From an uncultured Planctomycetia bacterium (lineage in GTDB: Bacteria; Omnitrophota; Gorgyraeia; Taenaricolales; CAZCCH01): a stretch of DNA of 64,000 nt. The DNA lies in assembly GCA_964497315.1 (NCBI GenBank), contig CAZCCH010000004.1:18307-82306 (forward strand), in the 5' to 3' direction. A program made the translations under genes and the position numbers. The notes under the pieces are model-generated. The model saw nothing but the letters and a program-made list of their open reading frames with translations. It was not told the DNA's origin and made no database searches. Shown here in pieces: positions 4,453 through 57,574 of the stretch. The first letter of the stretch is position 1, and each line of letters begins with the position of its first letter.

Positions 4453-5394
4453 TTAATTGCCTAATGTGTCCCCTGTTTTTAAATCATGGCCTGCCAAAAA
4501 TGCAGCAATATCCATTTGCTTTGAGTTAGCAGGTTGCAATCTATTTATCTCTAAAACCTCAGAACCTGTTGCGATCTGAAGTTTATTATCCTTTTTGGAA
4601 ACCACTTCACCCGGCTTTTTACCTTCTGCTTTTATTGCACTTATTCTTGCCTCCCAAACCCTAAGAAGCTTACCCTTTAAAAAAGTGTGTGCAATTGGCC
4701 AAGGAATAAAAGCCCTAACTCTGTTGTGTATTTGCCTGGCAGACATCTTCCAGTCAATTAATCCATCCTGCTTTTTTAATTTAGGTGCGTAAGTTGTCTT
4801 ACTTTCATCCTGCGGAGTGAAGGTTGCGCGTCCTTTTTCTATGGAATCTATTGTTTCTAACAGCAAGTCTGCGCCTGCCTGAGCTAATTTTTCTGATAGG
4901 CTAAGATAAGTATCGGTTTCTTTTATGGGAATTTGGGGACTCTGGGCAATAATGTCACCTGCGTCCATAGTTTGGTTCATTCTTATAATGCTAAGTCCTG
5001 TGGCCTTCTCACCATTTACTATTGCCCAGTGCATAGGGCTTGCACCCCTGTATTTTGGAAGAAGGGAACCATGCATATTTATACAAGATTTATCCGGTAA
5101 AGTCAATACTTTATTACATAATATATGACCATAAGCTATAACACAGAAAAGATCTGCCTTATATGCTGCTATATTTTCAATGAACTTTCCAATTGAAGGA
5201 TCTGGTGGTTGATATATATCTTTTATGCCATGTTTTAACGCCTCTATCTTTATTGGGGGTTGGGATAGCTTCAGATGGCGTCCTTTTTTTCTATCAGGCT
5301 GAGTTACTACAGCCAAAACCTCATGTTTGGAGGCTACTAGTTTTCTCAAGCTTGGAATGGCAAATTCTGATGTCCCAAAAAATATTACTTTCAT
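4453..5394 (-). CDS. fmt: Methionyl-tRNA formyltransferase.
   Basis: The product is 313 aa. It has the formyltransferase core HGSLLPKYRGASPMHWAIVNGEKATG followed by the Fmt C-terminal domain. Confidence 0.9.
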   Translation of the reverse strand: MKVIFFGTSEFAIPSLRKLVASKHEVLAVVTQPDRKKGRHLKLSQPPIKIEALKHGIKDIYQPPDPSIGKFIENIAAYKADLFCVIAYGHILCNKVLTLPDKSCINMHGSLLPKYRGASPMHWAIVNGEKATGLSIIRMNQTMDAGDIIAQSPQIPIKETDTYLSLSEKLAQAGADLLLETIDSIEKGRATFTPQDESKTTYAPKLKKQDGLIDWKMSARQIHNRVRAFIPWPIAHTFLKGKLLRVWEARISAIKAEGKKPGEVVSKKDNKLQIATGSEVLEINRLQPANSKQMDIAAFLAGHDLKTGDTLGN

Positions 5395-10089: not shown

Positions 10090-10092
10090 AGG

Positions 10093-10635: not shown

Positions 10636-10661
10636 TTAATTAAATGCCTTTTTGTTACTCT

Positions 10662-11297: not shown

Positions 11298-11344
11298 GGC
11301 TGCACCTTTTGGTTTTTGTCATCATTTTCATATTTGGCTCCATT

Positions 11345-13983: not shown

Positions 13984-14062
13984 TTCTCACAACTCCTTTT
14001 TTATGGTATTTTATCCTTCAACTTCTATTTCTAAAAAAGACAGCATGTCACAAGTGTGTTTT

Positions 14063-17285: not shown

Positions 17286-17300
17286 ATCGTCAATCCTGTT

Positions 17301-21687: not shown

Positions 21688-22794
21688 TTAGACTATAACC
21701 TCAGCTTTATGAATAAGCTTAAGTTTTTTAAAAATCTCTGCAGAATTTTTATCGTTTGTTATTATTGAATCATACTTTTTTCGCTTTTTTAGCACTCTCC
21801 AAATACACCTTAAAATGAAAAAATTATCAGGTAAAATGAATACCTTAATTCTAAAATGATCGCATAGTTTAATTTCTTTCGCTATATTCTTTTTAAAATA
21901 GACAAAAACACTTGAGGCCTTGTTGGCTTCCTGTCTTGTCTGCTTTTTAAGATTTTGCAAATATGAAGTATCTCTAGATGAAACTATATACACTAGGCGT
22001 TTCGGCTTATCCCATTTTTTATAAAACACTTCTGCATTTTTTGTGAAGATTCTTTTCGCATCGGTTGAGTCTGACCAAGAAGCACCTCCTATGTGCCATA
22101 CGTATGCCCTTTCTGCCATAACGCATCTATAGCCAATGGCCTGAATTCTCCTGCAAAAATCTACTTCTTCAAAATACCCCATGCCAAAGGTTTCATCAAG
22201 ATATCCAATTCTTTCTATTAGCTGACGCTTTATCAGCATGCAAAAGCCTTCACCGCTGTGAATCTCAATCGAGCGGCTATAAGAAGATTTTATTCTTTTT
22301 GCATATTCATCAATTGTTTCATTTGTTCTGGGATTTTTGCTAAAGGTATTACTAGCAGGTGTAACTACGCCTATTGACTCATCGCTTTCTGCGACAGCGA
22401 TTATTTCGCTTAACCAACCATCTGTGACTAATATATCATTATTTAAAAGACAAACATAATCGGCACTAGATTGCTTCATTCCTATATTCATACCTTTAGG
22501 ATATCCCTCATTGGCTTTATTAAATAAAACCGTAATACTTATCAAGTCATTGCCCTTTAGGTTTCTTAAATACCCCATAAAGTCTTCATTCTTGCTGCCA
22601 TTGTCAACAATTATAAGCCTGGTGGGTACGTGCGTATGTTTCAATATGCTCTCAATGCAAGGCTTGGTAAGCTTTAAGTATTCCCATGTTAAAAGAATTA
22701 AATCACAGCTTTTCGTCATTTTTACAAATTTCCCAATATTTTGCCCATCTTGAAAAATCAACCCAGGAAAAAAGAACTGCAAAAATAAACCCAT
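21688..22794 (-). CDS. GT2 glycosyltransferase, paralogue of the N-terminal module of 29308..31422.
   Basis: The segment CDLILLTWEYLKLTKPCIESILKHT..RLIIVDNGS has a DxD-type core. Its C-terminal FFILRCIWRVLKKRKKYD segment is colinear with the 29308 protein. The real start is probably the internal Met near 22719, because the upstream part overlaps the preceding gene. Confidence 0.7.
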   Translation of the reverse strand: MGLFLQFFFPGLIFQDGQNIGKFVKMTKSCDLILLTWEYLKLTKPCIESILKHTHVPTRLIIVDNGSKNEDFMGYLRNLKGNDLISITVLFNKANEGYPKGMNIGMKQSSADYVCLLNNDILVTDGWLSEIIAVAESDESIGVVTPASNTFSKNPRTNETIDEYAKRIKSSYSRSIEIHSGEGFCMLIKRQLIERIGYLDETFGMGYFEEVDFCRRIQAIGYRCVMAERAYVWHIGGASWSDSTDAKRIFTKNAEVFYKKWDKPKRLVYIVSSRDTSYLQNLKKQTRQEANKASSVFVYFKKNIAKEIKLCDHFRIKVFILPDNFFILRCIWRVLKKRKKYDSIITNDKNSAEIFKKLKLIHKAEVIV

Positions 22795-24280
22795 GCATAC
22801 CTTCTAGAAAACCTTTCTTTTTGATGTATAGCTTACGAAATATTTTTAAAGGTCTAAAAATTAATTTTTTACGCAACTTTTTATCTAGCATGCTTCCTTT
22901 TTGTTCATACATCTCAATGGCTTCATAGGTGGTATAACGATTGTGCCTGGCTATAAAGGTTTCTATATCCTTAAAAGGGTAATGCTCTATTTCTTCTTCT
23001 AGGGTTCCTATTTTGCCATTTACAATAAGTTCATGGTGCACTCTCCCTTTATATCTGGCAAATCCCTTTTTGAAAAAATGCAAAGAATAATGATACCACC
23101 CTCCGTATTTCATTGGACGTCCTAAAAAGAAATTTTTGCGTCTAAATTTATAGGCTACGAACTCCGTAGGACAGCTTAAAACTTCCATAACCTTCTTTTT
23201 AAAGGCCTCTGTGACTATTTCATCTGCGTCTAGCTGCACTATCCAATCTCCACTAGAGTTATCAATGCCTATATTTCTTTCCAGTCCAAAATCGCCCTCA
23301 AATTCATGCTGGATAACCTTGGCACCATATTCATTGCAGATATCAACTGTCTTATCAGTACTCATGCCGTCAACTACTACAATTTCATCTACCCATTTAA
23401 TAGACTCAAGGCAATTTCTGATTTTTTCTTCTTCATTTTTGACTATTAAAACTGCTGTAATTGCCTGCCTTTCATTATTCTGCATAGTGCTTCCTGCTTG
23501 TGTTTTTTGAACCATGGGTTGATTTTTATCTAATAGCATTTCCCACAATTTAGCAAAGGTTAAGATTTGATAAAATCCTGCAAACACAGCAAGGATAAAT
23601 CCCCAAGAACCATCCTTGTAACCTTTTTTTCCAACAAGACTGCGCCAGAATCTATCAATGGTCCTGCGTAGAGATCTACTAAAACCCATTTTTTTTTCTG
23701 CCCTGGCTTGCTTCTGCGCTTCTCTTGTTGTTTGATTATTGAGTTTGATTAAAAAATCTTCAATATCCCTGTAAGAGCAATGAATTATATCACTTTTTAA
23801 ATTGCCACATTCGCCTCCCATAAAGGCCCTCGGATGGACTTCTACCTCTTCATATCTGAATTCACTTTTTTTAAACAACTTAAGTTGTGCACTGGGGTAC
23901 CATCCGCCATATCTAACCCAATAATTACCAATGTAGTTTCTTCGCGCGATGTTATATCCATTCGCCGTTGGTGCAGTCTTTAATAAAGCTTCTATTTCAT
24001 CCATGAGTTCTGGCGTAGCCCGTTCATCAGCATCAAGGCTCAAAATCCATTCATTGTCTGCTAGTGAGTATGCGTAGTTTCTATGCTTGCCTTCTATGTC
24101 CATCTTGCGCTGATATACCTTAGCGCCAAGACTGCGGGCAATCTCTACTGTATCATCCTGGCTAAAATCATCCAGGACTACTACTTCATTCGCCCTTTTG
24201 ACAGATTCCAAGCATTCTTTAATTCTGTCTTTCTCATTCTTCGTGATTATTACAATTGATATTGGAATGTTTTCTTTCAT
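22703..24280 (-). CDS. Tandem double-GT2 glycosyltransferase (two GT-A domains in one polypeptide).
   Basis: The product is 525 aa. Two repeats of the GT2 opening are present: ISIVIITKNEKDRIKECLESV..DDFSQDDT and ITAVLIVKNEEEKIRNCLESI..VDGMSTDKT. Each is followed by LDADE or DADE catalytic motifs. Confidence 0.8.
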   Translation of the reverse strand: MKENIPISIVIITKNEKDRIKECLESVKRANEVVVLDDFSQDDTVEIARSLGAKVYQRKMDIEGKHRNYAYSLADNEWILSLDADERATPELMDEIEALLKTAPTANGYNIARRNYIGNYWVRYGGWYPSAQLKLFKKSEFRYEEVEVHPRAFMGGECGNLKSDIIHCSYRDIEDFLIKLNNQTTREAQKQARAEKKMGFSRSLRRTIDRFWRSLVGKKGYKDGSWGFILAVFAGFYQILTFAKLWEMLLDKNQPMVQKTQAGSTMQNNERQAITAVLIVKNEEEKIRNCLESIKWVDEIVVVDGMSTDKTVDICNEYGAKVIQHEFEGDFGLERNIGIDNSSGDWIVQLDADEIVTEAFKKKVMEVLSCPTEFVAYKFRRKNFFLGRPMKYGGWYHYSLHFFKKGFARYKGRVHHELIVNGKIGTLEEEIEHYPFKDIETFIARHNRYTTYEAIEMYEQKGSMLDKKLRKKLIFRPLKIFRKLYIKKKGFLEGMHGFIFAVLFSWVDFSRWAKYWEICKNDEKL

Positions 24281-25779
24281 TTCCTTCTATATATAATTAC
24301 CTTGTGAGGCCAATTCGCTACAGTCTTAAATTTATGATATCCTGGATCAGGCCGGTTCTCGAATCTTATATCAGGAACCGGCAGGTGTATTTTTTCATAT
24401 AAAGACTCTATTCTTTTCTGGTACCTACTACCAATAAATTCCTGAGGTTGCCAATCCCTGCGATAGACTATCCATTCCGGATAGGTTTCAGCCATAAAGG
24501 GTCCATTATCGACCTTCAAGTCAGTGTAGAATATCGCAGCGAAATCTCCATAATTCATTTTAACTGTATCGGCAGGATCAGCCTCTTTCTTTAAATATTC
24601 CACTATACCTTCGGCTGGACCATCATAGTCGTGATTTACCTCCCAGAGGTAATCATATAAATGCAACTTTGTTTGTTTTGCAAATGGTGCTCCGGTATGA
24701 AATATATTTGTAAAACCCACAAGTATAAACAAGCTAAATGCTAAGAGGCTCGATTGCTTTTGCCATCCGGCTAAGACAAGTGCCATTAACATAAAACATA
24801 ACGGTACTAAGTGGATTATATATCGCAACTGCCTTTCATCCGCTAATAATAGAAAAAAGATAGTAGAAATGATAACTATGATGGGTAACCATAAAGACGA
24901 TTTATCCAAAGGATCCTCTAAAACCGGAAACCGCCTCCTAATCCGAAAATACACTAAAGAAATAAATACAAATAGCAACGGGAATATATACTTGTTCAAA
25001 ACTCTGACATAGAATTCCAGGTGATCCTCTGTGCGCTCCAAAGAAAACTGCCCGCTATATTCGAAGCTACCTAAGTAAAGCAAGGAAGGTGCAGTCAATA
25101 TAAACACTGCAAACAATATAATTGATATTATTCTTAGCTTAAGTACATTTCTATGGAATAAAATATAATGAACGAAAATCGCACTCAAAACAGGAAAAAA
25201 TATCCCATAATTGCTATGAAATAAACACGCAGCAGAAATTATAAATCCGAAAGCAGGGGCAATTTTTCTATTCCGCAATAAGTCCAAATAGGATAAAACT
25301 AGCCATAGTGTAAAAAATATAGTCAGGGCATACCAGCGACACTGCCGTACATACAAAAGGAAGGGAACGAAAAATACCATTAAAGCAACACTAACGCGGG
25401 ATACAAATCTGTTTTTAAAAAGTCTATTAGCTAAAAGAAAACACATAGGCACACAACCAAGACCAAACAGCACAAAAACTAATCTGGCGGTAAATGTAGA
25501 TTCCCCGAATAACCAAAAGATACCTGCTACAAGATAGAATTGAAGCCAAGCAGCGTATTTCCAACCTTTATTTACACATGGATCTTCATATATATTCCTA
25601 ACTAAATTTTTACCATCATATGCCTGTGGAATTCCGAACTTGAGAGTATTTCTAGCCAAAACCGCCGTCTCTGCCTCATCCTGCCAAAGATATACATTGC
25701 CTAAATTGGTAAATAAAAGTACTCCTGCCAATAGACAAAGTAAAACCAATATTAAGTCTCTTCTGCCATGCTCCATCAT
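24277..25779 (-). CDS. ArnT/PMT-like GT-C glycosyltransferase (polyprenyl-phosphate-sugar dependent; GT83/GT39-like).
   Basis: The product is 500 aa and polytopic. The first periplasmic loop reads LWQDEAETAVLARN (compared with ArnT LWQPDETRYAEISREM), followed by the WLFGESTF segment. Confidence 0.7.
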   Translation of the reverse strand: MMEHGRRDLILVLLCLLAGVLLFTNLGNVYLWQDEAETAVLARNTLKFGIPQAYDGKNLVRNIYEDPCVNKGWKYAAWLQFYLVAGIFWLFGESTFTARLVFVLFGLGCVPMCFLLANRLFKNRFVSRVSVALMVFFVPFLLYVRQCRWYALTIFFTLWLVLSYLDLLRNRKIAPAFGFIISAACLFHSNYGIFFPVLSAIFVHYILFHRNVLKLRIISIILFAVFILTAPSLLYLGSFEYSGQFSLERTEDHLEFYVRVLNKYIFPLLFVFISLVYFRIRRRFPVLEDPLDKSSLWLPIIVIISTIFFLLLADERQLRYIIHLVPLCFMLMALVLAGWQKQSSLLAFSLFILVGFTNIFHTGAPFAKQTKLHLYDYLWEVNHDYDGPAEGIVEYLKKEADPADTVKMNYGDFAAIFYTDLKVDNGPFMAETYPEWIVYRRDWQPQEFIGSRYQKRIESLYEKIHLPVPDIRFENRPDPGYHKFKTVANWPHKVIIYRRK

Positions 25780-26468
25780 GATGTAAACCTCAAGATTATC
25801 AATTCTACAATCGTAATTATTACATTCAGCGGTAAATCTCCCTTTGCGATTCCCGCTTTCCTAGGAAGATAATCCACCTCTACTTCTTTAAAGTTACAGC
25901 CATTGCGTTTTGCCTTAAATATGACCTCAGCATCCACGCATATACCTCTTGATGTAATTTCCATATTTTTAAATACATCTTTTTTGAAAAGTTTTACCCA
26001 GTTTACATCTTTTAAAGTAATACCAAATAGAAAAAACATTGCCAACCTAAAAACTTTGGTTTTTATCCTTCGAAGTAAAGGATCTGTGTGTCTATATTTA
26101 CGACAGCCCACAATGACATCAAAATCTTTCCATTCTATAAATTTATCTAAATCATCTATGTTGAATTGTCCATCCGAAGGCACAAGTGTTAAATAATCGT
26201 ACCTTGCTGACAATATGCCTGATTTCTGCGCCCCGCCATAACCTATATTAAAAGGATGGTGAATTACTTTAATCATTGCATGTTCGCTAGACAGCCTTTC
26301 TGCAATTTTACGAGTTGCGTCTTTACTGCCATCATTGACTATAAGTATTTCATATTCTTTTGCTAGGGAAGGTAGCTTATTTCTAACTGCTTCAACTACA
26401 ACTTCTAATAACTCTTGTTCATTAAAGGCTGGTATAACTACTGTTAAATTCGGAAGTAGCTCTTTCAT
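25776..26468 (-). CDS. GT2 polyprenyl-phosphate glycosyltransferase, DPM1/GtrB-like, soluble catalytic domain.
   Basis: The product is 230 aa. It has LTVVIPAFNEQE...EILIVNDGSKDAT and DGQ motifs. The C-terminal TM hairpin is absent. Confidence 0.7.
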   Translation of the reverse strand: MKELLPNLTVVIPAFNEQELLEVVVEAVRNKLPSLAKEYEILIVNDGSKDATRKIAERLSSEHAMIKVIHHPFNIGYGGAQKSGILSARYDYLTLVPSDGQFNIDDLDKFIEWKDFDVIVGCRKYRHTDPLLRRIKTKVFRLAMFFLFGITLKDVNWVKLFKKDVFKNMEITSRGICVDAEVIFKAKRNGCNFKEVEVDYLPRKAGIAKGDLPLNVIITIVELIILRFTS

Positions 26469-26470
26469 AT

Positions 26471-27877
26471 CTAAATAAAATCCTCTCGCGTTTTATCTTT
26501 AGAACAAACTAAATGGCTAATTAAATAAAAACCTCCCCGCATGGATTCCAAAGGGTATCTAATGAAAAATTTGGCCCTGGAAGCTATATACTTTGGCCTG
26601 AGATAGTATTCTTTTAAAAACCTACCCTCCCATGCAGTTAATTTCTTCTCAAATTCAACATCTTTTAAACGGTTTTTGTATGGAAAAAGCGAAAAATCTA
26701 TTTTCTCTTTCATGTCATTGAAAAAGGCTGTACCAGGATATGGAACAGTTTTAAAAATGGTACAGTAGTCTAGTTTGCACTTCTTTGCCAACTTTAGTGT
26801 CTCATTGAAATCTTCTTCTGTTTCAATAGGAGCTCCAACCATAAAAAACCCTGCTACTTCTATTTTGGCCTTATTAACAAGATTTATTTTCTCAGGTATC
26901 TCTTCCACCTTGTATGACTTTTTGTAATAATCTAAAATTTTCTGCGAACCGCTTTCTATTCCTATGTACAACCGCTTACAACCTGCCTTTTTCATTGCCC
27001 CAAGCATATTCCCATCAAGGGTATTAATTCTACTTAAAGCTGCCCAATTGACCTTTAGGCCTTTTTCTAATATCAAGTCACATATCTTTATAACGCGTTC
27101 TTTTTTGACCGTGAAGGTATCATCTAGAAATCTAATGTTTCTTATTTTAAAGCGCTGGACGATTTCCTCTATTTCTGCAACTACACTTTCTGCTGAACGA
27201 AATGCAAGTCTATTTCCGTATGTCCGTACACAATACGTACAAGCATAGGGGCAACCCCTCGAAGTAAGGATTGTAGTAAATGGTTTGCCTAAAAAAAGAT
27301 CATTGTAAAGTCTATTGTCTATGAGGCTACGCTCAGGATGGGGTAATGAGTCTAAATCCTTTATTCTGCCTCTGGGTTCATTAATGGTTACATTGCCGTT
27401 ACGCTTAAATGCAATACCGTTTATATTGCCTATGTCCTCATTTTTAATTAGGCTATCGCAAAAAACTGAGAATGTCTCCTCGGGTTCATCCATTATTATA
27501 ATATCTACCTTAGATTTATTGAGTATTTCTTCAGGAAATAGGGTTGGATAATAACCTATTGCTATAAACTTTGTAGTTACAAGTTTGCCTTTTAAAAAAT
27601 CCAAAACTTCTATATCTTCACCAAATATCTCAAAGCCTGGCATAAATACTAAAAGGTCTGGCTTTGCTTCTTTTAGCCTTTCAGAAACCGCCTCAGCATT
27701 CATTCCCTGGGCGATTGCATCGATTATCTCTGTTTCTACACCCTCCTTTTTATGCGCTACTGCAGCTAAATACATCAACTCTATTGGAGGAAACAAAAAA
27801 TTTGGTGCATTATAAGAACACATGTATCTACGAATAACTTTATTTCTATTTGGTAGGTTTAAAAATGTTATTTTCAT
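26471..27877 (-). CDS. B12-binding-domain radical SAM enzyme.
   Basis: The product is 468 aa. It has an N-terminal B12-like domain and the cluster motif SRGCPYACTYC. Confidence 0.8.
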   Translation of the reverse strand: MKITFLNLPNRNKVIRRYMCSYNAPNFLFPPIELMYLAAVAHKKEGVETEIIDAIAQGMNAEAVSERLKEAKPDLLVFMPGFEIFGEDIEVLDFLKGKLVTTKFIAIGYYPTLFPEEILNKSKVDIIIMDEPEETFSVFCDSLIKNEDIGNINGIAFKRNGNVTINEPRGRIKDLDSLPHPERSLIDNRLYNDLFLGKPFTTILTSRGCPYACTYCVRTYGNRLAFRSAESVVAEIEEIVQRFKIRNIRFLDDTFTVKKERVIKICDLILEKGLKVNWAALSRINTLDGNMLGAMKKAGCKRLYIGIESGSQKILDYYKKSYKVEEIPEKINLVNKAKIEVAGFFMVGAPIETEEDFNETLKLAKKCKLDYCTIFKTVPYPGTAFFNDMKEKIDFSLFPYKNRLKDVEFEKKLTAWEGRFLKEYYLRPKYIASRAKFFIRYPLESMRGGFYLISHLVCSKDKTREDFI

Positions 27878-27889
27878 AGTGCAATCTTT

Positions 27890-29311
27890 TTAGATGCCCC
27901 CTGCTATGGCTAGAAAACCATCGAAGTAACGTTTGATATCATTCAAACTTCTAATTTGTTTAATCTGTTGAAAAATATATTTTGGCCTGAGATAAAACCT
28001 TTTATGTATAACAGAAGATATTGAGCGTAATTGTTCTTCAGTCATCCCTTTGGGTATATAAGCAATATCTGCCGAATCCGGGATGTTCAACTGGCAAAAT
28101 TGACTCCATTTTCTATGAAGAAGCGTCCCTTCTTTTGATGCAATATCAAACAATTCATTTCCAGGGTATAGCGTCACATTATAAAAATTGGCTATATCTA
28201 TAGGTAAGGATTTAGCAAATTCCAAGCTGCGGTTTATGGAATCGAGGGTATCTCCTGGCATGCCAATAACAAAAAATGCCCTCACGTTAAGCCCTGCCTT
28301 TTTTGCCTGCTTAACTGCTCTGGAGCTATCCTCTATGGTCATGCCCTTCTTCATGCTAGCTAAGATAGCTGGATCTCCTGATTCTAGGCCGAATCCTATC
28401 TGCCAGCACCCTGCTTGTTTCATAAGTCTTAAAAGTTCTTCATTCACACAGCGCACATGTGAGAGACAAGACCAGATAATATCTAATTTCTTTTTTATTA
28501 TCTGTTGGCATATAGCCATAGCTCTTTCTTTATTAACTGTGAAAGTATCATCGAAGAATTTTATCTCTTTAACACCATATTTAAACTTAAGCTCTTCTAT
28601 TTCCTCTAATACGTTTTGTACTGAACGAGCTCTAAACTTATTGCCAAATACCTTCCTATCGCAAAATGTACATCCAAAGGGACACCCCCTACTGGTCATC
28701 ATATGTGCAAAAGGCAACTTTCTATATGAAGCAGCAACAGGTTTGTAATACTTTAAGTCAGGATAGAGATGGCGTGCCGGAGGTGGTAATTTATCCAAAT
28801 TGTCTATATAACCAGCTCTTTGTGTTATTTTTATACGACCATTTTCTTTATACGCTACACCTTCTATCTTTTCTAGTTGCAGGGAATTTTCTTGTATTTG
28901 TTTTGCTAATTCCAAAAATGCATACTCGCCTTCTCCTATAATACCTATATCAAAATTAGAATTCTGCATTGCTTCTTCTGGAATAGCGGTCATGTGGGGT
29001 CCTCCTAATACCAGAAAAACCCCTGACAATGCATCTTTTATCTTTTTTGCAACTGAACAGGCATTCGGATAAGAAAGTGTTGTGGCGGTTATTCCAATAA
29101 TTTGCGGGTTAGCCTCCTTAAGCATACCAACTAACTCCTCTTCTTGTGTATTTAAAGGACGACTGTCGATTATGCTAATATCAAAACCTTCTCTTTCTAA
29201 AACTGCAGCTATATAACCCAGCCCCAAAGATGGTAAAACATTGGCTATCCTCTTAAATTTTCCAGCATATTCTGGCCTAGATAAAGGGGGGTCTATTAAG
29301 CAAATCTTCAT
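27890..29311 (-). CDS. B12-binding-domain radical SAM enzyme.
   Basis: The product is 473 aa. An N-terminal B12-like domain (LGLGYIAAVLEREGFDISIID) is followed by SRGCPFGCTFC. Confidence 0.8.
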   Translation of the reverse strand: MKICLIDPPLSRPEYAGKFKRIANVLPSLGLGYIAAVLEREGFDISIIDSRPLNTQEEELVGMLKEANPQIIGITATTLSYPNACSVAKKIKDALSGVFLVLGGPHMTAIPEEAMQNSNFDIGIIGEGEYAFLELAKQIQENSLQLEKIEGVAYKENGRIKITQRAGYIDNLDKLPPPARHLYPDLKYYKPVAASYRKLPFAHMMTSRGCPFGCTFCDRKVFGNKFRARSVQNVLEEIEELKFKYGVKEIKFFDDTFTVNKERAMAICQQIIKKKLDIIWSCLSHVRCVNEELLRLMKQAGCWQIGFGLESGDPAILASMKKGMTIEDSSRAVKQAKKAGLNVRAFFVIGMPGDTLDSINRSLEFAKSLPIDIANFYNVTLYPGNELFDIASKEGTLLHRKWSQFCQLNIPDSADIAYIPKGMTEEQLRSISSVIHKRFYLRPKYIFQQIKQIRSLNDIKRYFDGFLAIAGGI

Positions 29312-31422
29312 AATTCAACCCTTGTTAATTCCATATTGGCGCAATGGTTAACTACCTCGGCAGGTGTGGTAACCCAAGCTTTCGTATCTTTAGTAACAAT
29401 TTCCAAAAAACTTCTATATATATCAAAAATCTTTCCTTTCATGCCAAAGTGAGAATCTGGATGTATATTTAAAGTAGCCAAGCCACCCATTTCCTTTATC
29501 CAGCTTAATTTATTAAGCCATAATTTCAAAATTTCCTCTGGTGTCTTTTTCAAAAAAACACAAGTAGAGTCTTGTGGCAAGGTTAATGGTAATTCCATAA
29601 GTTTACCCAAACGATATGGAAAAATGCTGCAGCAACCGCTTCTATAAGGAGGCCTTGCAGAAATTTCAGTATCTGGGAATGTAGAATCGTATTCAAAAAA
29701 TTCTGAAATTGCACGCAATAAAGTCGGCGTCCTCAACAATGAAGGTGATCTAAAACCCTTCATGTTGTATTCCTTTATTGTATTTCGATATTTCTCTAAC
29801 CTAGAACATATCTCTGATTGCGAAAGATAAGGTAAACTTTCATCGTGGTTATCGCCATGACAGGCTACTTCATTTTCTCCTTTAAGTACTTCATGGAAAA
29901 ACCGCCCACCAAACTCTACATTCTTCAATACAACAAACCAGCAGGATTTAACACCAAATTCTGCTTCAAGGTGTAGGAATTTTTCTGCTGGCTTAAAACC
30001 TTTGTTTGTATCTATGTCATGCGTTAAACATACAGCATATTTTTTTTCTTCGGGCCATTTAATCTGACTAAGTTTACCTCTTATAGTCCTTTTTAGTAAA
30101 TCAACTGTTATGTCTTCAGGCCAATTTGGAAAGTTTACACGTTGTCTTTTTAAACTATGTAAACCTGTCAGCCACTGGGCAATCAAAACCCTTATTGAAC
30201 CAGGTACTAAATGATAGTGAAAAGGTAAGTATGAAGTCCAGGGTCTTTTGGATTTTAGGTATCTTTCTGCTAAGATGCAATCTATGGTATCATTTATGTC
30301 CAAATCAAGATTTAGTCTTTCTTTAAAGTTAACATATTTGGCAGGGATTCTCCGTAACGCCTCAAGCACCCCTTTGGTTATGCTCAAAGTTACCCTTGCC
30401 TTATTCAAGAATCTTACTTTATTAAACTGCTCTGCCAGTTTTACATCTGGACAAAAAATGATATCATAACGTTTTTTCTTTACACTGCTTCGCCATAGAC
30501 AGCGTAGATTAAAAAATTGTGCAGGAAAATCCATGGTACGTAAATCACTATGAGAAATATTATTAGATAAACCATTTCTAACTTGTGATTTGCTTGTAAA
30601 ATCTACAAAATTACCTTGCCTGGCTATTTCAAGGCATTTAAGATGAAAATCTCTTAAAAAATCTAAATCTGTGTTTGAAGTAACTGCCATAATTCTTAAT
30701 GGCCTGCCCCATTTTTGATAAAACCTTTGTCTACTCTCGTCAAATTTCTTCTGGCGGTCACTTAATTTTTGAACAGATTTGTGTTCATAATGATGAACGT
30801 AAGCACCCTTTGCAATTACACAAATAAACCCAATCTCTTTGGCCCTATAAGAATAATCTGTATCTTCAAAAAAGAACCCACTTAAAAAATCATCTAGATA
30901 TCCTATTTTTTCTATTAACTGGCGTTTAACCAACATGCAAAAACCTATCGTACTGCCGATTTCGCGAAATCCACCACCTTCTAACTTGAGTAGTTCTTTA
31001 GATAAAGTATCTACTGTCTCAGATCCCTTAAGGCAAATACCAAAGTTATTGCTATTTGGATTAACTATGCCTATGTCTTCCCTTAGGTTTGCAACCCGAA
31101 TCATTTCAGAAAGCCACCCCTTAGTTACTAAGGTATCATTATTGAGAATACAGGAAAAAGGTGCGCTTGAGGCCTTCAGTCCTACATTATTTCCACCTAC
31201 AAACCCGAGGTTTTCTTTATTCGTAATCAATTTAATTTCAACATGTTCTGTGGACTTAAGGTTTTGTAGGTATAGCTTAGTTAAATTATCGCTATTATTA
31301 TCTACAATAAGAAGGCGTGAGGGGCATGTGGTTTTTTTTAAGACGCTTTCAATGCAAGGCTTTGTATATTCAAGGTTATTCCAAACCAAAACTATAATAT
31401 CGCAAATAGGAGTTTTCTTCAT
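29308..31422 (-). CDS. Bifunctional GT2 glycosyltransferase (N) plus ArnD/NodB-like polysaccharide deacetylase/deformylase domain (C).
   Basis: The product is 704 aa. The N-terminal ~360 aa are colinear with the 21688 GT2. The C-terminus carries the CE4/ArnD-type motifs CLTHDIDTNKG (compared with ArnD RIDVDT) and VACHGDNHD. Confidence 0.65.
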   Translation of the reverse strand: MKKTPICDIIVLVWNNLEYTKPCIESVLKKTTCPSRLLIVDNNSDNLTKLYLQNLKSTEHVEIKLITNKENLGFVGGNNVGLKASSAPFSCILNNDTLVTKGWLSEMIRVANLREDIGIVNPNSNNFGICLKGSETVDTLSKELLKLEGGGFREIGSTIGFCMLVKRQLIEKIGYLDDFLSGFFFEDTDYSYRAKEIGFICVIAKGAYVHHYEHKSVQKLSDRQKKFDESRQRFYQKWGRPLRIMAVTSNTDLDFLRDFHLKCLEIARQGNFVDFTSKSQVRNGLSNNISHSDLRTMDFPAQFFNLRCLWRSSVKKKRYDIIFCPDVKLAEQFNKVRFLNKARVTLSITKGVLEALRRIPAKYVNFKERLNLDLDINDTIDCILAERYLKSKRPWTSYLPFHYHLVPGSIRVLIAQWLTGLHSLKRQRVNFPNWPEDITVDLLKRTIRGKLSQIKWPEEKKYAVCLTHDIDTNKGFKPAEKFLHLEAEFGVKSCWFVVLKNVEFGGRFFHEVLKGENEVACHGDNHDESLPYLSQSEICSRLEKYRNTIKEYNMKGFRSPSLLRTPTLLRAISEFFEYDSTFPDTEISARPPYRSGCCSIFPYRLGKLMELPLTLPQDSTCVFLKKTPEEILKLWLNKLSWIKEMGGLATLNIHPDSHFGMKGKIFDIYRSFLEIVTKDTKAWVTTPAEVVNHCANMELTRVEL

Positions 31423-31447: not shown

Positions 31448-33271
31448 TTAAATATCTCTAAACTGCATATCATACAACTTCTTATACAATCCATCTGTTT
31501 CCATAAGGTCGTCGTGTTTTCCAATGGCTTCTATTTTACCTTTTTCCAACACAATAATCTTATCTGCATTACGCACAGTAGATAACCTATGGGCTATAAC
31601 AAAAACGGTTCTGTTCTTCATTAATTTATTAAGGGCTTCTTGAACTAATTGTTCCGATTCAGTATCTAACTGAGAGGTAGCTTCATCCAAAATTAGTACA
31701 GGCGGGTTTTTCAACAATGCCCGTGCGATTGACAACCTTTGCCTTTCTCCTCCTGAAATAGTATGCCCCCTATCTCCTATAAACGTATCGTAGCCCTCTG
31801 GGAATTTTGTTATAAAATTATGCGCATTAGCAGCTCTGGCTGCGTTTATAACGTCTTTCTCCGATGCATCTTCTCTGCCATAGGAAATATTGGCAAAGAT
31901 TGTATCATTAAACAATATTGTTTCCTGAGTAACTAAACCTATTTGTGCACGTAGTGAATCTAAGCTAGCAACTCTTATATCCTGGTTATCTACTAATATT
32001 CTTCCTGATGTAGGATCGTAAAAGCGAGGGATTAAATTTACAAAGGTGCTCTTGCCTGCACCGCTTGGTCCTACGATAGCGATGATTTCACCTTTTTTAA
32101 CTTCGATAGATATAGAGTCTAAGGTCGGTTTTGTATCATAGCTAAAATTAACGTTATCAAAAACTATTTTTTCATGTAATGGTTTTAGCTTAACTGCACG
32201 CTTTGCCTCTATCACTGTGGGCTTTTCATCTAGGATATGATATACCCTCTCACTCGCTGAAATTGCCTGTTGGTTTATCATATGAACTTTACTGAGACGT
32301 TTTATTGGTCTTATTAATGAAAGCAAGGCTGCCAAAAAGGCGATAAATGCTCCTGGGCTTAAGCCTTCATATATAACCTGTTTTCCACCAAGCCACAAAA
32401 CTACTGCTACAGCTAACATGCTCAAAAATTCCGTAATAGGCCTTACGGAATTCATCCTTTTAACGGATTTCATCGAAAGTCTGTAAAATTTCTGGTTTTC
32501 TTTGCGGAATTTTTCAGATTCAGATTTCTCCATAGTAAAGGCTTTGACAACCTGCATACCAGATATAGCCTCAAGCAAAAGGGAATTTATATCTGCTGTC
32601 TTTACCTGGCTTTGCGTAGTAATTCTTTTTAGGCGGCTGCCTATTTTTATAATTGGATAAGCCATTAAAGGGAGCAGGGCAGCTATAATAAATACAAAAC
32701 TCCAGGAAATTGAGAAGTAATTTCTAATCACAAGAAGCATTGTTAAATACACTAAAAATTGCACTGGCTGATAAAATATTTCAGTTAAACCCTCAGCAAT
32801 TGCCTGCTGTATCAAAGCGGTATCATTGGTTATCCTACTCATTAGAGTAGCAGTTTTATTACGATGATAAAAATTCATGGATAACCCCAGTAATTTGTTG
32901 TAAATTCTATTTTGAACATCCCTCACTGACCTTTTGCTGGCAGCTACCATCAAATAAGAATGAGCAAATACAAGGACTTCCTTAAGCACAACCATGCCCA
33001 TAACAATTAATATGATATAGTTTAATAGAGTACCTCGTGGCAGGGTATTGATTTTATTCACTAACCCCTTGACTATTTCTGGTATGGCATTAGAATTTGG
33101 TAAGATAATTTCTTTACCGGCAAGTATCTTATCTACCAATGGAATTATCATGCCCACAGAAACACCATCAAACAGCGATGACAAAATCATACATACCACC
33201 GCAAATGCCAGAATTTTGGTGTGGGGACCTATGAATTTTAACATGCGAAAATAATTTTTGATATTAATCAT
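31448..33271 (-). CDS. ABC transporter, fused permease/ATPase, MsbA-like lipid/glycolipid exporter.
   Basis: The product is 607 aa. Six predicted TM helices are followed by a Walker A GPSGAGKST, the ABC signature LSGGERQRLSIARAL and a Walker B ILDEATS. Confidence 0.85.
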   Translation of the reverse strand: MINIKNYFRMLKFIGPHTKILAFAVVCMILSSLFDGVSVGMIIPLVDKILAGKEIILPNSNAIPEIVKGLVNKINTLPRGTLLNYIILIVMGMVVLKEVLVFAHSYLMVAASKRSVRDVQNRIYNKLLGLSMNFYHRNKTATLMSRITNDTALIQQAIAEGLTEIFYQPVQFLVYLTMLLVIRNYFSISWSFVFIIAALLPLMAYPIIKIGSRLKRITTQSQVKTADINSLLLEAISGMQVVKAFTMEKSESEKFRKENQKFYRLSMKSVKRMNSVRPITEFLSMLAVAVVLWLGGKQVIYEGLSPGAFIAFLAALLSLIRPIKRLSKVHMINQQAISASERVYHILDEKPTVIEAKRAVKLKPLHEKIVFDNVNFSYDTKPTLDSISIEVKKGEIIAIVGPSGAGKSTFVNLIPRFYDPTSGRILVDNQDIRVASLDSLRAQIGLVTQETILFNDTIFANISYGREDASEKDVINAARAANAHNFITKFPEGYDTFIGDRGHTISGGERQRLSIARALLKNPPVLILDEATSQLDTESEQLVQEALNKLMKNRTVFVIAHRLSTVRNADKIIVLEKGKIEAIGKHDDLMETDGLYKKLYDMQFRDI

Positions 33272-35293: not shown

Positions 35294-35916
35294 TTTTTAC
35301 CTCCTGTATATGGTTTTTGTCTTTTATTTAAACCTGTTACGCACTTCAACTTTCTAACATCCTTCCTAACGCGTGCAGGATTTCCGTAAACCAGGGCATT
35401 CTTAGGAACATCTTTGGTGACTACACTCCCTGCGCCTATTAGACTATTCTCACCTATTTTCACAAAAGGCAAAATAGTTACATTTACCCCAATCTTGGCA
35501 TTCTTTTTTATAACAGGTCCTCTTTGGCATTCTCTTGAAAGCCTGCACCCAGGATGTATATCATTGGCTATGGTTACGCCCGGCGCTAAAAATACCCCAT
35601 CTTCTATTCTGGTATACTGTGCCACATAACAGTTTGAGTGTATTTTTACATCTTTTCCAATGTTACAGCCATAGTCAACAATAGAGTTGTTCCAAATTTT
35701 AAAATCATCTCCGATCTTATTCTCTTCTCTTATAACTACCCCATGACCTGTCTCTAAATTTTTACCTATGCTTGAGCCCTCATATACAACCGTTCCGCAT
35801 CTTATCTTGGCGTTTTTACCTATGCGGAGCATGCGATTCTTTATCTTCCTTGGGCAGGCATAGCCTATCTTTACGTCATCATCAATCTTAGAGGGTTTTA
35901 CGATACTAACCTTCAT
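35290..35916 (-). CDS. Left-handed beta-helix (hexapeptide-repeat) sugar N-acetyltransferase, WbpD/PglD-like.
   Basis: The product is 208 aa. Repeated [LIV]G..xx hexapeptides are visible across the length (for example IGKNLETGHGVVI and IGKDVKIHSNCYV). Confidence 0.8.
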   Translation of the reverse strand: MKVSIVKPSKIDDDVKIGYACPRKIKNRMLRIGKNAKIRCGTVVYEGSSIGKNLETGHGVVIREENKIGDDFKIWNNSIVDYGCNIGKDVKIHSNCYVAQYTRIEDGVFLAPGVTIANDIHPGCRLSRECQRGPVIKKNAKIGVNVTILPFVKIGENSLIGAGSVVTKDVPKNALVYGNPARVRKDVRKLKCVTGLNKRQKPYTGGKK

Positions 35917-37882: not shown

Positions 37883-38971
37883 TTAATCGTTTTTTAACTT
37901 AAGCAGCTGTTGTGCCGCTTTTATGGTTTCATCAAAATTTATAGAATTAAGGCAAATCTGATTATTGCATTTCTCATTGAATCTAAATTTTTCATAACAA
38001 GGTCTGCACTCTACATCAGCCTTTATTACAATATGATTAGGACTTGGTGGATATGGTCCGTATACAATTTCATCTACAGGTCCAAAAACTGAAACAGTCT
38101 TAGTCTCTACGGCTACTGATAAATGGAGTGGACCGCCATCATTACATATTAAAAGATTGCACTCACTAAGAAGACCGGCAAACTGCCTAAGGTCTGTCTG
38201 TCCACATAGATTAGTCGCATTGAATGACATAGAATTGGCCATTTCCTGGCAAATATCTGTCTCATTTCGGGTTCCAAAAATGATAATCTTGGCATCATGT
38301 TTGGATATTAGTATATCTGCCAGTTTTGCAAAGTTTTCATACGACCAATGCTTGTAAGGAGCTTGCTCTCCCCAGCTTGCTCCTCCTGCAGGAGCAAAAC
38401 CAATTACTAAATCTCCCTGCTTTATCTCTTTGTCCTGCAAGAAATCTCTTGCCTCTTTTTTTTCCTGTTCACTCAAATAAACGCTTAAGTTCTCCCCCGC
38501 CTTTGAATGAAAATCACCCAGAGATTCTAAAAGTAAATTATAGTATTCAACCATATGCCTATTGGAATATCCATCTATTTCTACTTTCGATGTTAAAAAC
38601 CTCCCCCTTCCCTTGAAATCATATCCAATCCTTTTAGGTATCCCTAAGAACATAAGGAAAAAACTATACTGACTGTTTAAAGAAAAATCAAAAACAACAT
38701 CAAAGTGTTCGTTTTTAATTTCACTTAAGAAACCCTTGAGTTTTTTTAAAAAATCTATCTTGGAATTTTTCCACAGGCTTCTATATTCATCCTTTTCAAA
38801 GATCCATATTTTATCTATTGCTGGATTATTAACAAGCAAAGGTTGTGTTCGTACATTACATATGTACCCTATAAAACTCTCAGCAAAGTTTTCTTTAAGC
38901 GCAGCAATAAAAGGTGTAGTAAAAAGAACATCTCCTATGCCGAAAGGGTTTAATATTAAAATTTTTTTCAT
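37883..38971 (-). CDS. GT9 ADP-heptose:LPS heptosyltransferase-family glycosyltransferase.
   Basis: The product is 362 aa. The N-terminus KKILILNPFGIGDVLFTTPFIAALKE matches the GT9 opening. The GT-B C-terminal half includes the CNDGGPLHL region. Confidence 0.75.
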   Translation of the reverse strand: MKKILILNPFGIGDVLFTTPFIAALKENFAESFIGYICNVRTQPLLVNNPAIDKIWIFEKDEYRSLWKNSKIDFLKKLKGFLSEIKNEHFDVVFDFSLNSQYSFFLMFLGIPKRIGYDFKGRGRFLTSKVEIDGYSNRHMVEYYNLLLESLGDFHSKAGENLSVYLSEQEKKEARDFLQDKEIKQGDLVIGFAPAGGASWGEQAPYKHWSYENFAKLADILISKHDAKIIIFGTRNETDICQEMANSMSFNATNLCGQTDLRQFAGLLSECNLLICNDGGPLHLSVAVETKTVSVFGPVDEIVYGPYPPSPNHIVIKADVECRPCYEKFRFNEKCNNQICLNSINFDETIKAAQQLLKLKND

Positions 38972-49214: not shown

Positions 49215-50186
49215 TTATTCGATAATTTCTCTGATGTAAAAAGTTTTAGACCTATCCAATTCATGATAAACCTTGCTGACAATTTCACCAAGAAGGCCAA
49301 GTGTTAAAAACTGTATGCCTGTAATAAAGAGGAGTATGGAAAGAATAAAAAGAACGGGCCTGTGCACAAGTATCCCAAGGCCAAAGGCATACTTTAAAAA
49401 GATAAGATAGGACATTACAGTAAACCCTGCCAATGAAACAAACAGTCCGAATGTCCCAAAAAACTGAAGCGGTCGTGAAAGATATCTAGATAAAAAATTA
49501 ATTCTTAATAAATCGAAAAATACTGTCCATGTCCGCAACAGGTTGTAGCTCGACCTACCCCGGTTCCTTTCAATATTTTTTATAGGTATTTCAATAATGG
49601 AAGCTCCAGTTTTAGAAGCTAAAACAGGTATAAATCTATGGAAATCACCATAAAGCTTTACATTCTTTATCACTTCTTTCCTGTAGGCCTTAAACGTTGT
49701 GCCAAAATCATGCAGCTTTATGCCTGACATTTTAGCCATTGCCATGTTAGCAATAAACGAAGGTATTCTTCTTAGCCAAAAGTTATCGACCCTATTTTTT
49801 CTCCATCCACTGACAACATCGTAACCTTTATCAATATGCCTAATAAATGACGGTAAATCTTCCGGGTCATGCTGTAAATCTGAATCCATGAGTACAATAA
49901 TGCTGCCGTGAGAATATTCTATGCCTGCGGATAAAGATGCAGTTTGGCCAAAATTTCTTTTTAATCTGACAATCTTAACTTTTTCATCCTTATGGTTTAT
50001 CTCTTTTAGGAGTGCGGCTGAATTGTCAGTTGATCCATCATCCACAAAAATTAATTCATATGTTCTTTCAAGCTTAACAAGTACAGCGCTGAGTTTATCG
50101 TAAAGCTCCTGTAGATTTTCTTCTTCATTAAAAACTGGCAATACAACAGATATATCGCATGGATATTGCGTATTAGTCTCTTCCAT
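49215..50186 (-). CDS. ArnC-like undecaprenyl-phosphate glycosyltransferase (GT2 with C-terminal TM hairpin).
   Basis: The product is 323 aa. The segments ISVVLPVFNEEENLQELYDKL..ELIFVDDGSTDNSAALL..DSDLQHDPEDLP are nearly colinear with E. coli ArnC. Two C-terminal TM helices are present. Confidence 0.8.
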   Translation of the reverse strand: MEETNTQYPCDISVVLPVFNEEENLQELYDKLSAVLVKLERTYELIFVDDGSTDNSAALLKEINHKDEKVKIVRLKRNFGQTASLSAGIEYSHGSIIVLMDSDLQHDPEDLPSFIRHIDKGYDVVSGWRKNRVDNFWLRRIPSFIANMAMAKMSGIKLHDFGTTFKAYRKEVIKNVKLYGDFHRFIPVLASKTGASIIEIPIKNIERNRGRSSYNLLRTWTVFFDLLRINFLSRYLSRPLQFFGTFGLFVSLAGFTVMSYLIFLKYAFGLGILVHRPVLFILSILLFITGIQFLTLGLLGEIVSKVYHELDRSKTFYIREIIE

Positions 50187-57473: not shown

Positions 57474-57574
57474 TTTGAATTACATTTAAACCTTTTACAT
57501 ATTCCAGCAAAAACCGAATTCTTTAATTAGACTAACGCCTGCGCGTTTCTTAAGGACTACCTATGATTTCTGGC

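Follow-up and report, generated by a model that had tools for sequence, protein, structure and literature searches.

Do genes that each resemble one step of the Arn pathway form such a pathway when they occur in one gene cluster, or do they serve different ends? This question is raised by a 64,000-nucleotide stretch of DNA from an uncultured bacterium, probably of the Omnitrophota (contig CAZCCH010000004.1; the whole stretch is called the window below). The initial annotation had read the window as encoding decoration of lipid A or another acceptor with an aminopentose like 4-amino-4-deoxy-L-arabinose (Ara4N), linked to polymyxin resistance, with the functions of the fused enzyme ArnA split between separate genes. 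We focused on a gene pair at 24277–26468, which encodes a short glycosyltransferase of family 2 (GT2) and a membrane glycosyltransferase of the GT-C fold. The two proteins probably constitute a two-step, lipid-carrier-mediated glycosylation unit acting on the glycan of the surrounding cluster, a reading that we favor with some reservation. The Arn-like genes outside the pair serve unrelated sub-pathways, and an Ara4N pathway is not supported.

A short GT2 and a GT-C enzyme form a pair

The pair consists of the following genes.

25776..26468, minus strand: GT2 of 230 aa, called GT2-230 below (Pfam Glycos_transf_2, 90.6 bits)
24277..25779, minus strand: GT-C fold membrane glycosyltransferase of 500 aa, COG1807/PMT_2 superfamily (weak PMT_2 match, about 10 hydrophobic segments)

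The best NCBIfam match of GT2-230 was PpgS, which aligned over the full length with 70.9 bits against a cutoff of 370, and the ArnC model (NF007986) gave 44.8 bits against a cutoff of 529. When a profile of 54 GT2-230 homologues was compared with the Protein Data Bank (PDB), ArnC (133.7 bits), GtrB (111 bits), and DPMS (109 bits) ranked above every conventional GT2. The AlphaFold2 (AF2) model of GT2-230 had a predicted local distance difference test (pLDDT) value of 94. Its top 25 Foldseek matches in the PDB were all ArnC, GtrB, or DPMS, with query-based TM scores (TMq) of 0.61–0.83, and ArnC was the top structural match. The protein is without the two C-terminal transmembrane helices of ArnC and GtrB and ends in a hydrophobic/amphipathic helix at residues 207–225. 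Polyprenyl-phosphate (Pren-P) glycosyltransferases without transmembrane helices are known, namely human DPM1 and PpgS, and the latter, the mycobacterial polyprenyl-phospho-GalNAc synthase, is a short GT2 of approximately 226 residues. As both profile and fold put ArnC, GtrB, and DPMS first, we concluded from fold and family that GT2-230 is a putative Pren-P glycosyltransferase of the transmembrane-less type, within the DPM1/PpgS/ArnC/GtrB class.

The GT-C protein matched Pfam PMT_2 (PF13231) with 23.8 bits, under the cutoff of 26.1, and most of its homologues carry PF13231. Approximately 10 strongly hydrophobic segments are followed by a soluble domain of approximately 135 residues (about 365–500), which is presumably periplasmic. 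The residues D34-E35, located directly after the first transmembrane segment, were invariant in an alignment of 60 sequences; the catalytic acidic motif of GT-C enzymes occupies the corresponding position. The sole PDB sequence match of the family profile was ArnT (5ezm, 36.6 bits). At E ≤ 1e-3, the AF2 model (pLDDT 92) matched only GT-C structures (ALG12, ArnT, ALG9, PglB/STT3, DPY19, Emb, Aft, and Pmt), with TM scores of approximately 0.5–0.6, and ArnT was not clearly nearer than the rest. The ArnT equivalog model (NF009784) covered 78 residues with 19.7 bits, compared to a cutoff of 567. Judged by its sequence and modeled fold, this protein is predicted to be an uncharacterized member of the ArnT/PMT (COG1807) superfamily and no ArnT orthologue.

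The stop codon of GT2-230 overlaps with the start codon of the GT-C gene as ATGA (within TCATGA), indicating that the two genes are translationally coupled. We compared 80 metagenome loci and two genome loci found through the GT-C family, together with extra loci found through individual GT-C or GT2 homologues (designated by numbers with the prefix L). The open reading frames (ORFs) of these loci were classified against the window proteins, and neighbors within 3 kb of the GT-C gene were counted in the 26 GT-C loci whose sequence extended for 2.5 kb or more to each side of this gene. The commonest class of neighbor was a Pren-P-type GT2 (12 of 26 loci). Genes for a B12-binding radical S-adenosylmethionine (SAM) enzyme and for a second GT-C were each found in six loci, a GT9 gene in five, and a DegT gene in four; a formyltransferase gene was found in none of the 26.

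Among the four closest homologues of GT2-230 that were looked up or met among the loci, three were located in a GT-C module (L010, L012, and L016; not L011). In L010, where the GT2 is 57% identical to GT2-230, the gene order is deacetylase, radical SAM, GT2, radical SAM, and GT-C. The order in L012 is radical SAM, GFO, formyltransferase, DegT, radical SAM, GT2, GT2, radical SAM, GT-C, and GT-C. GT2 and GT-C thus recur together as a functional unit, whose sugar specificity seems to differ from lineage to lineage, as is typical for serotype-variable surface glycans. In L005 (6734–7807) and L007 (4662–5825), a gene for a LegC/PseC-type C4 aminotransferase lies directly upstream of a short GT2, a B12-binding radical SAM enzyme, and GT-C. 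The aminotransferase scored 315 bits with the LegC model and 204 bits with the ArnB model, and its counterpart is absent from the window. The cargo in the L005 and L007 lineages may be a 4-amino sugar. A link between the pairs and pentose synthesis, through the short-chain dehydrogenase/reductase (SDR) genes upstream of GT2/GT-C pairs in L057, L063, L064, L076, and L090, was also considered and was dropped, as the STSE and YxxxK motifs of decarboxylases are missing from these SDRs, which have STRQVYG or no match instead.

The pair is embedded in a large glycan cluster

The pair belongs to a single minus-strand array of approximately 40 glycan-biosynthesis genes that runs from about 12.8 kb to the window end at 64 kb, with a largest intergenic gap of 101 bp. 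The cluster occupies more than 50 kb of the window and at least 10 kb more past its end. Its G+C content is mostly about 33–38% and reaches 42–45% at the 14–18 kb end. Housekeeping genes, including pgk, gap, fmt, priA, and a uracil-DNA glycosylase gene, occupy 0.1–12.8 kb. The ORFs discussed here are real genes, with identical proteins on 12 metagenome contigs and with hundreds of homologues; the contigs with identical proteins come from JGI and ENA and include one of 89.8 kb that is recorded from NCBI, among other sources. The nearest genomic relatives of the GT-C gene were found in metagenome-assembled genomes of Candidatus Omnitrophota, at 55–59% identity and with partial synteny. Going by these best homologues, the very large cluster, with its many radical SAM genes, probably derives from the Omnitrophota, a phylum about which little is known.

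The genes bearing on the nature of the glycan are as follows.

31448..33271, minus strand: MsbA-like ABC exporter (TIGR02203 MsbA, 528.8 bits, cutoff 602)
37883..38971, minus strand: GT9 heptosyltransferase-like enzyme (TIGR02195, heptosyltransferase II, 127.5 bits, cutoff 134.6)
40083–41867, minus strand: WecA/MraY-type phosphoglycosyl transferase fused to a WbaP-type transmembrane/CoA_binding_3 part (overlaps the SDR gene at 41864–42823 by 4 bp)
50186–51592, minus strand: membrane protein of the Wzy_C/O-antigen-ligase family (overlaps the GT2 gene at 49215–50186 by 1 base)

Genes for Wzx and a 2-epimerase are located directly upstream of the window. The glycan was assigned as a lipopolysaccharide (LPS) core or O-antigen-like glycan because of the GT9 heptosyltransferase-like, MsbA-like, Wzy_C, and WecA-like proteins and the upstream Wzx. 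By homology, the cluster product is most probably a Wzx/Wzy-type LPS-associated heteropolysaccharide. The GT9 gene, a recurrent neighbor of the GT-C family, suggests an LPS-core context, and the exporter is a candidate flippase for a lipid-linked glycan or LPS. A HAD-family phosphatase is encoded at 10093–10635 and is possibly GmhB-like.

In the mechanism that we propose for the pair, GT2-230 would be peripheral on the cytoplasmic face of the membrane and, according to its fold and family, would load one sugar onto polyprenyl (undecaprenyl) phosphate, with a nucleotide sugar as the donor. The Pren-P-sugar would then be flipped across the membrane, a step for which no dedicated gene was found. 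The GT-C enzyme would transfer the sugar outside the cytoplasm, as its fold, its topology, and the loop with the invariant D34-E35 suggest. The acceptor would be the cluster's own glycan, for which an LPS core or a polymer of the O-antigen type is the most probable identity. The analysis gave no support for lipid A as the acceptor, for a cationic charge, or for resistance to polymyxin or other CAMPs. The adjacent B12-binding radical SAM enzymes and a domain of carbohydrate esterase family 4 (CE4) may modify the transferred sugar, which is not demonstrably an aminopentose.

The Arn-like genes belong to other sub-pathways

All ORFs named in the initial annotation were present at their coordinates, on the minus strand, and in the domain superfamilies assigned to them. 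Homologues of every Arn step, as it had proposed, do exist at the superfamily level, but none of the candidates reached any Arn equivalog cutoff. The ArnC/ArnT likeness of the pair itself extends to the same two-step logic, in profile and in fold; it does not extend to orthology, given the scores of 44.8 and 19.7 bits against cutoffs of 529 and 567. The proposed Arn genes are spread over approximately 36 kb, and each lies within a different conserved sub-module.

The supposed ArnB is encoded by the first of three genes that overlap by 4 bp each.

34184–35293, minus strand: DegT aminotransferase, QdtB/WbpE-like (PDB: QdtB 399, WbpE 290, ArnB 168 bits)
35290–35916, minus strand: N-acetyltransferase, QdtC/WlbB-like (QdtC 122, WlbB 71 bits)
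35913–36989, minus strand: GFO/IDH/MocA oxidoreductase, GnnA/UDP-GlcNAc 3-dehydrogenase-like (closest to UDP-GlcNAc 3-dehydrogenase models)

The DegT protein scored 218.8 bits with the ArnB model (NF008658), compared to a cutoff of 631. Its structural matches to QdtB and WbpE and its overlap with C3-specific partners argue against the ArnB assignment. Among named structures, the oxidoreductase was closest to 7bvj, which we take to be GnnA. The same trio was found in L007 at 53–61% identity. These homologies indicate that the trio performs C3 oxidation, amination, and N-acetylation to give a 3-acetamido sugar and contains no C4 aminopentose enzyme.

41864–42823, minus strand: UXS-like UDP-uronate decarboxylase-type SDR (STSEIYG, YxxxK, and FNTVGPR motifs)

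The SDR proposed as the second half of a split ArnA is indeed of the decarboxylase type, as the STSEIYG motif shows, and no plain 4-epimerase. However, it matched human UXS1 with 202 bits and 40.5% identity, compared to 108 bits for ArnA and 117 bits for PbgP3, a stand-alone ArnA-type protein of Burkholderia. Its score with the ArnA model (NF005998) was 136.6 bits against a cutoff of 777. The STSE, YxxxK, and GPR motifs of UDP-uronate decarboxylases are present, in the comparison with both UXS1 and the C-terminal domain of ArnA. Judged by these matches, the SDR resembles a synthase of UDP-xylose or UDP-XylNAc. Its gene is coupled to that of the initiating transferase, and not to the gene of an aminotransferase, a formyltransferase, or a GT2; a trio of a GT4, the SDR (55% identity), and the WecA fusion was kept in L036 and L037. 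In the fusion protein of the window, the WecA/MraY part covers approximately residues 1–340, and the N-terminal transmembrane part and CoA_binding_3 of WbaP/WcaJ cover approximately 360–594, without their catalytic domain. A 603-aa counterpart occurs in L036/L037, where a UXS-like SDR again precedes it.

The formyltransferase, proposed as the other half of ArnA, lies 34 kb from the pair and 17 kb from the SDR gene, in a separate module consisting of the following genes.

60935–61669, minus strand: methyltransferase, member of the N-acyl block
60015–60938, minus strand: Fmt-paralogue formyltransferase (Formyl_trans_N and Formyl_trans_C)
59011–60018, minus strand: FemAB-like GCN5-related N-acetyltransferase (GNAT) (Acetyltransf_6; weak TIGR03019 match, 26 bits)
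57575–59014, minus strand: VimE-like CE4 deacetylase (DUF7033; VimE model over the full length, 145.3 bits, E 2e-42, cutoff 440)
56625–57473, minus strand: methyltransferase, member of the N-acyl block
54767–56671, minus strand: AsnB/WbpS-like amidotransferase, member of the N-acyl block

The catalytic Asn, His, and Asp of the formyltransferase are present (INCHPSLLPKFRG...DTGDII). The protein scored 131 bits with the fmt model (cutoff 201.5) and 109.1 bits with the ArnA model (cutoff 777); its PDB scores were 93 bits for Fmt and 73 bits for ArnA. By these scores it seems slightly nearer to Fmt than to ArnA. A housekeeping role as fmt was ruled out, as the window encodes another protein that passes the fmt cutoff.

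4453..5394, minus strand: true methionyl-tRNA formyltransferase fmt (TIGR00460, 290.8 bits, above 201.5; adjoins priA at 5394–7397)

Thus, the formyltransferase at 60015–60938 is an additional, divergent paralogue reserved for the glycan cluster. Its gene, the FemAB-like GNAT gene, and the VimE-like gene overlap by 4 bp, and these ties, together with the ArnA score, speak against a part in a split ArnA. A 570-aa fusion of Formyl_trans_N and a FemAB-like Acetyltransf_6 is encoded in L095 (JGI 3300038380, 9858–11570), with DUF7033, AsnB, and GT4 next in line. In the window, the genes are unfused and keep this order, with the methyltransferase gene at 56625–57473 inserted after DUF7033. The L095 fusion suggests that formylation goes together with the transfer of an aminoacyl or acyl group to the amine of a sugar.

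Two ArnD-like deformylases had also been proposed, the VimE-like protein and the C-terminal half of the protein at 29308–31422, and neither matched ArnD at E ≤ 1e-3. No PDB sequence relative of the VimE-like protein was found. The two AsnB proteins of the cluster scored 655 and 454 bits with TIGR03108 (cutoff 817).

The trio and this block resemble the Wbp/Vim pathway of Porphyromonas gingivalis and Tannerella forsythia. In this pathway, WbpA, WbpB, WbpE, and WbpD produce UDP-GlcNAc3NAcA, the CE4 enzyme VimE takes off the 2-N-acetyl group, the FemAB/TIGR03019-like VimA attaches Ser or Gly, and the AsnB/TIGR03108-like WbpS forms the uronamide (Veith et al., PMC7468200). The window contains homologues for every role except that of WbpA, all below the equivalog cutoffs and with a weak VimA-like match. 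C3 oxidation, amination, and acetylation, a VimE-like CE4 enzyme, a FemAB-like acyltransferase, and WbpS-like amidotransferases are common to both systems; unlike the Wbp/Vim system, the window adds the Fmt paralogue and methyltransferases, WbpA was not found in it, and it is not known to have a T9SS context. By analogy, the likeness would explain the neighborhood of the supposed ArnB, ArnD, and formyltransferase. We infer that 54767–61669 is an N-acyl remodeling block for a diamino (uronic) sugar, in which the Fmt paralogue would formylate the freed amine or a newly attached aminoacyl group. The logic of the Fmt-paralogue/FemAB fusion for N-acyl remodeling of sugars is a modest testable lead and no new principle.

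A homologue of the C-terminal domain of D-glucuronyl C5-epimerase is encoded next to the block at 61663–62628 (117.9 bits), and others are encoded in L095 at 5954–6934 and 8863–9861. These genes are conserved beside radical SAM/SPASM and FemAB/formyltransferase genes, which suggests C5 epimerization of a uronic acid residue.

Pfam scans of nearly all window ORFs of at least 100 aa detected no 6-dehydrogenase for UDP-glucose or UDP-GlcNAc (Ugd/WbpA), and none was detected in the 10 kb upstream. No small ORF with multiple transmembrane segments of the ArnE/F or GtrA type was found anywhere in the window. The result guards against mis-annotation, in that an ArnT-like label at the COG level together with DegT, SDR, and formyltransferase genes does not amount to an Ara4N or polymyxin-resistance pathway.

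Radical SAM, deacetylase, and further GT2 genes accompany the pair

The genes next to the pair, and a second Pren-P-type GT2 located elsewhere in the cluster, are as follows.

21688–22794, minus strand: GT2 of 368 aa, downstream of the GT-C gene (Pfam)
22703–24280, minus strand: GT2-GT2 tandem protein, directly downstream of the GT-C gene (Pfam)
26471..27877, minus strand: second B12-binding radical SAM enzyme, encoded between GT2-230 and the enzyme at 27890–29311 (HpnJ 182, BchE 168 bits, below the cutoffs)
27890..29311, minus strand: B12-binding radical SAM enzyme (Pfam B12-binding and Radical_SAM; HpnJ 229.9 bits, cutoff 577.6)
29308..31422, minus strand: fusion of a GT2 (about residues 7–347) and a CE4/NodB-like deacetylase (about 370–693), soluble, 704 aa (Pfam)
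49215..50186, minus strand: second Pren-P GT2, 323 aa, with the GtrB/ArnC architecture and two C-terminal transmembrane segments (ArnC 219 bits)

The radical SAM enzyme at 27890–29311 is a conserved neighbor of the GT-C family. Its best matches (27–72% identity) adjoin GT-C genes in L005/L013, L007, L010, L012, L016, L032, L035, L046, L051, L059, and L088. The second enzyme had matches in L010 (50.5%) and L012 (31.7%). Relatives of the two downstream GT2 proteins also adjoin GT-C genes, with synteny in L005, L007, L010, L013, and L014.

The N-terminal half of the fusion protein resembles 340-aa GT2 proteins that adjoin GT-C in L005, L007, L010, L013, L014, and L053. Its C-terminal half gave a weak Polysacc_deac_1 match, with the THD, HxxxH, RSP, and H motifs apparently intact in an alignment, and is 36% identical to the stand-alone deacetylase of L010. 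The PDB match of the protein was 3rxz (31 bits).

The GT2 at 49215–50186 had been described as a near-colinear ArnC. It does align end to end, residues 11–322 matching positions 7–312 of the 316 positions of the ArnC model, but the score of 219 bits compares with a cutoff of 529; PgfS gave 166 bits. The gene adjoins that of the Wzy_C protein and has no recognizable GT-C gene beside it.

In total, four radical SAM enzymes of the B12-binding type are encoded in the cluster, along with three or more of the radical SAM/SPASM type (20229–21668, 26471–27877, 27890–29311, 46997–48442, and 62601–63731; also 4917–8338 of L093). This load of radical SAM genes is unusually high for a polysaccharide locus. 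HpnJ or BchE was the best NCBIfam match of all four B12-binding enzymes, below the thresholds. A literature search for cobalamin-dependent radical SAM enzymes and O-antigen found no useful link.

A GT2 gene, a B12-binding radical SAM gene, and a GT-C gene placed in a row, with a CE4 gene added in the window and in L010, would fit a lipid-linked (amino)sugar that is remodeled by radical chemistry before its transfer by GT-C. We consider this doubtful. The sugar could be C-methylated or could undergo a rearrangement like that of HpnJ. The interleaved radical SAM and CE4 genes are formally paralleled by those of HpnI (a GT2), HpnK (a deacetylase), and HpnJ (a B12-binding radical SAM enzyme), which act in turn to convert hopanoid-linked GlcNAc to a cyclitol ether. 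Their genes are needed for the cyclitol ether of bacteriohopanetetrol (PMC5462960). The similarity of the window enzymes to HpnJ is generic, at 182–230 bits against the cutoff of 577.6.

Weighing of alternative explanations

If the Arn pathway were present in a rearranged form, the SDR would decarboxylate UDP-glucuronic acid, the DegT protein and the formyltransferase would follow, a GT2 would act on undecaprenyl phosphate, and a CE4 enzyme and the GT-C would complete an Ara4N-modified lipid A. Each Arn enzyme superfamily is present, the SDR has the STSE motif of a decarboxylase, the formyltransferase at 60015–60938 is an enzyme other than the housekeeping Fmt, with its catalytic residues intact, the GT-C family has ArnT as its sole PDB sequence match, and split ArnA genes are known in Burkholderia. 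However, the cutoffs were missed widely (ArnT 19.7 of 567; ArnC 44.8 and 219 of 529; ArnB 218.8 of 631; ArnA 136.6 and 109.1 of 777; no match to ArnD). The DegT protein groups with C3 aminotransferases and is overlapped by their partners, the SDR is nearer to UXS and has a conserved link to the WecA-like gene, and the formyltransferase sits in a FemAB/VimE-like operon, is fused in L095, and never accompanied GT-C in the 26 loci. The window encodes no ArnE/F, neither the window nor the 10 kb upstream encodes Ugd, and the candidates extend over 36 kb. An Ara4N pathway of this kind is therefore highly improbable. An Arn-like logic with another sugar is a more specific version of the carrier-mediated unit proposed here: GT2-230 would make Pren-P-HexNAc, the CE4 domain of 29308–31422 would deacetylate it, and GT-C would add a cationic hexosamine to LPS or lipid A. 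PpgS as the best NCBIfam match of GT2-230, the apparently intact CE4 motifs in a gene three upstream of the pair, and the stand-alone CE4 homologue within the same module in L010 are in line with this possibility, for which deacylation on the carrier lipid (ArnD, NaxD, and LgmC) and synthesis of Pren-P-HexNAc (PpgS, FlmF2, and LgmA) provide precedents. On the other hand, of the loci examined, the window and L010 were the only ones with the deacetylase, the CE4 domain is fused to a soluble GT2 with no membrane segment so that a nucleotide sugar or a polymer would fit equally as its substrate, and the PpgS score was 70.9 bits against the cutoff of 370. We regard this version as conceivable and rather unlikely.

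The automatic annotation of GT-C homologues as "glycosyltransferase family 39", PMT_2 as the sole Pfam match, the Pmt structures among the fold matches, and the loop-1 DE motif that is common to PMTs could instead point to O-glycosylation of proteins in the periplasm or at the cell surface, in the way of PMT/Ppm1. Pmt1, Pmt2, and Pmt4 were weaker matches (TMq 0.34–0.44) than ALG12 or ArnT, the context consists of GT9, WecA-like, Wzy_C, and MsbA-like proteins, and no candidate target protein is encoded nearby, which makes this explanation improbable. GT2-230 might also be an ordinary cytoplasmic glycosyltransferase that extends a lipid-PP-linked repeat unit, with the donor for GT-C made by the GT2 at 49215–50186. 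That the window has two Pren-P-type GT2 proteins and one recognizable GT-C, that GT2-230 lacks transmembrane helices and has a variant DxD, and that GT-C adjoins a GT2 of the 49215 type in L006 would be explained in this way. Sequence and fold, however, put GT2-230 with ArnC, GtrB, and DPMS before conventional GT2 proteins, and the ATGA coupling and the repeated occurrence of GT2-230 homologues beside GT-C genes leave this explanation little likelihood. Several findings nevertheless weigh against the two-step carrier-mediated unit itself. GT2-230 has no transmembrane hairpin of the ArnC/GtrB type. In its subclade, the first Asp of DxD is replaced by Pro (VPxDGQF, compared to TDxDGQF in most of the family); at residues 96–101, D99 and Q101 are invariant, and the Pro-containing motif is, by its sequence conservation, seen as a conserved variant and not as decay. 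Approximately half of the well-flanked GT-C loci are without a GT2 close by, and the nearest Omnitrophota relatives, L005 and L007, hold another short GT2, which is no orthologue of GT2-230, at the same position. The LPS assignment depends on the GT9 and MsbA matches, which are below threshold.

Comparison with known systems

Analogy suggests that the pair is mechanistically like ArnC/ArnT, GtrB/GtrC, RgtE/RgtA-D, PpgS/Rv3779, FlmF2/FlmK, and LgmA/LgmB, and this kind of system is well known. With the Arn (Pmr) system of Escherichia coli and Salmonella, the window shares a GT2 that loads undecaprenyl phosphate, a GT-C with an acidic first periplasmic loop, and a CE4-type deacylase nearby. Unlike in the Arn system, the GT2 lacks transmembrane helices, there is no C4 aminotransferase of the ArnB type, ArnA, match to ArnD, ArnE/F, or Ugd in the window, and B12-binding radical SAM genes are interleaved. 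Hexosamine is handled by carrier systems in Mycobacterium tuberculosis (PpgS (Rv3631) and Rv3779), Francisella (FlmF2, NaxD, and FlmK), and Bordetella (LgmA, LgmC, and LgmB), and the pattern common to these systems and the window is a Pren-P-HexNAc synthase, a deacetylase, and a GT-C. The window deacetylase is a CE4 domain fused to a GT2, unlike NaxD and LgmC, which are of the YdjC type.

GtrA/GtrB/GtrC in O-antigen glucosylation and RgtE/RgtA-D in the addition of galacturonic acid by Rhizobium place a side-branch sugar on O-antigen, core, or lipid A. These systems also combine a Pren-P-sugar synthase with a GT-C, and GtrB is in the top structural matches of GT2-230. Unlike in the GtrA/GtrB/GtrC system, no gene for a GtrA-type flippase is present in the window, and the GT-C family is distinct and uncharacterized. 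The sole unusual feature of the pair is the B12-binding radical SAM gene conserved between the Pren-P glycosyltransferase and the GT-C, joined in two loci by CE4. The pairing of an uncharacterized GT-C family with B12-binding radical SAM enzymes is a modest testable lead for envelope glycobiology.

Genes at the end of the cluster

The region at 12826–19199 encodes a TagF-like glycerophosphotransferase (12826–13983), an ATP sulfurylase (14063–15247), a protein of the phosphodiesterase family of 691 aa that has two hydrophobic segments near its N terminus (15210–17285), and a sulfatase-superfamily protein with five transmembrane segments and an LtaS/EptA-like architecture (17301–19199). Judging from these genes, the glycan may bear sulfate and/or phospho-substituents. 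Genes for sulfatases with transmembrane segments also flank GT-C genes in L055–L061. Where the housekeeping genes give way to the glycan cluster, a 491-aa ORF (11345–12820) combines only the C-terminal part of a pyruvate kinase barrel (profile positions 182–328) with a MobA-like nucleotidyltransferase domain.

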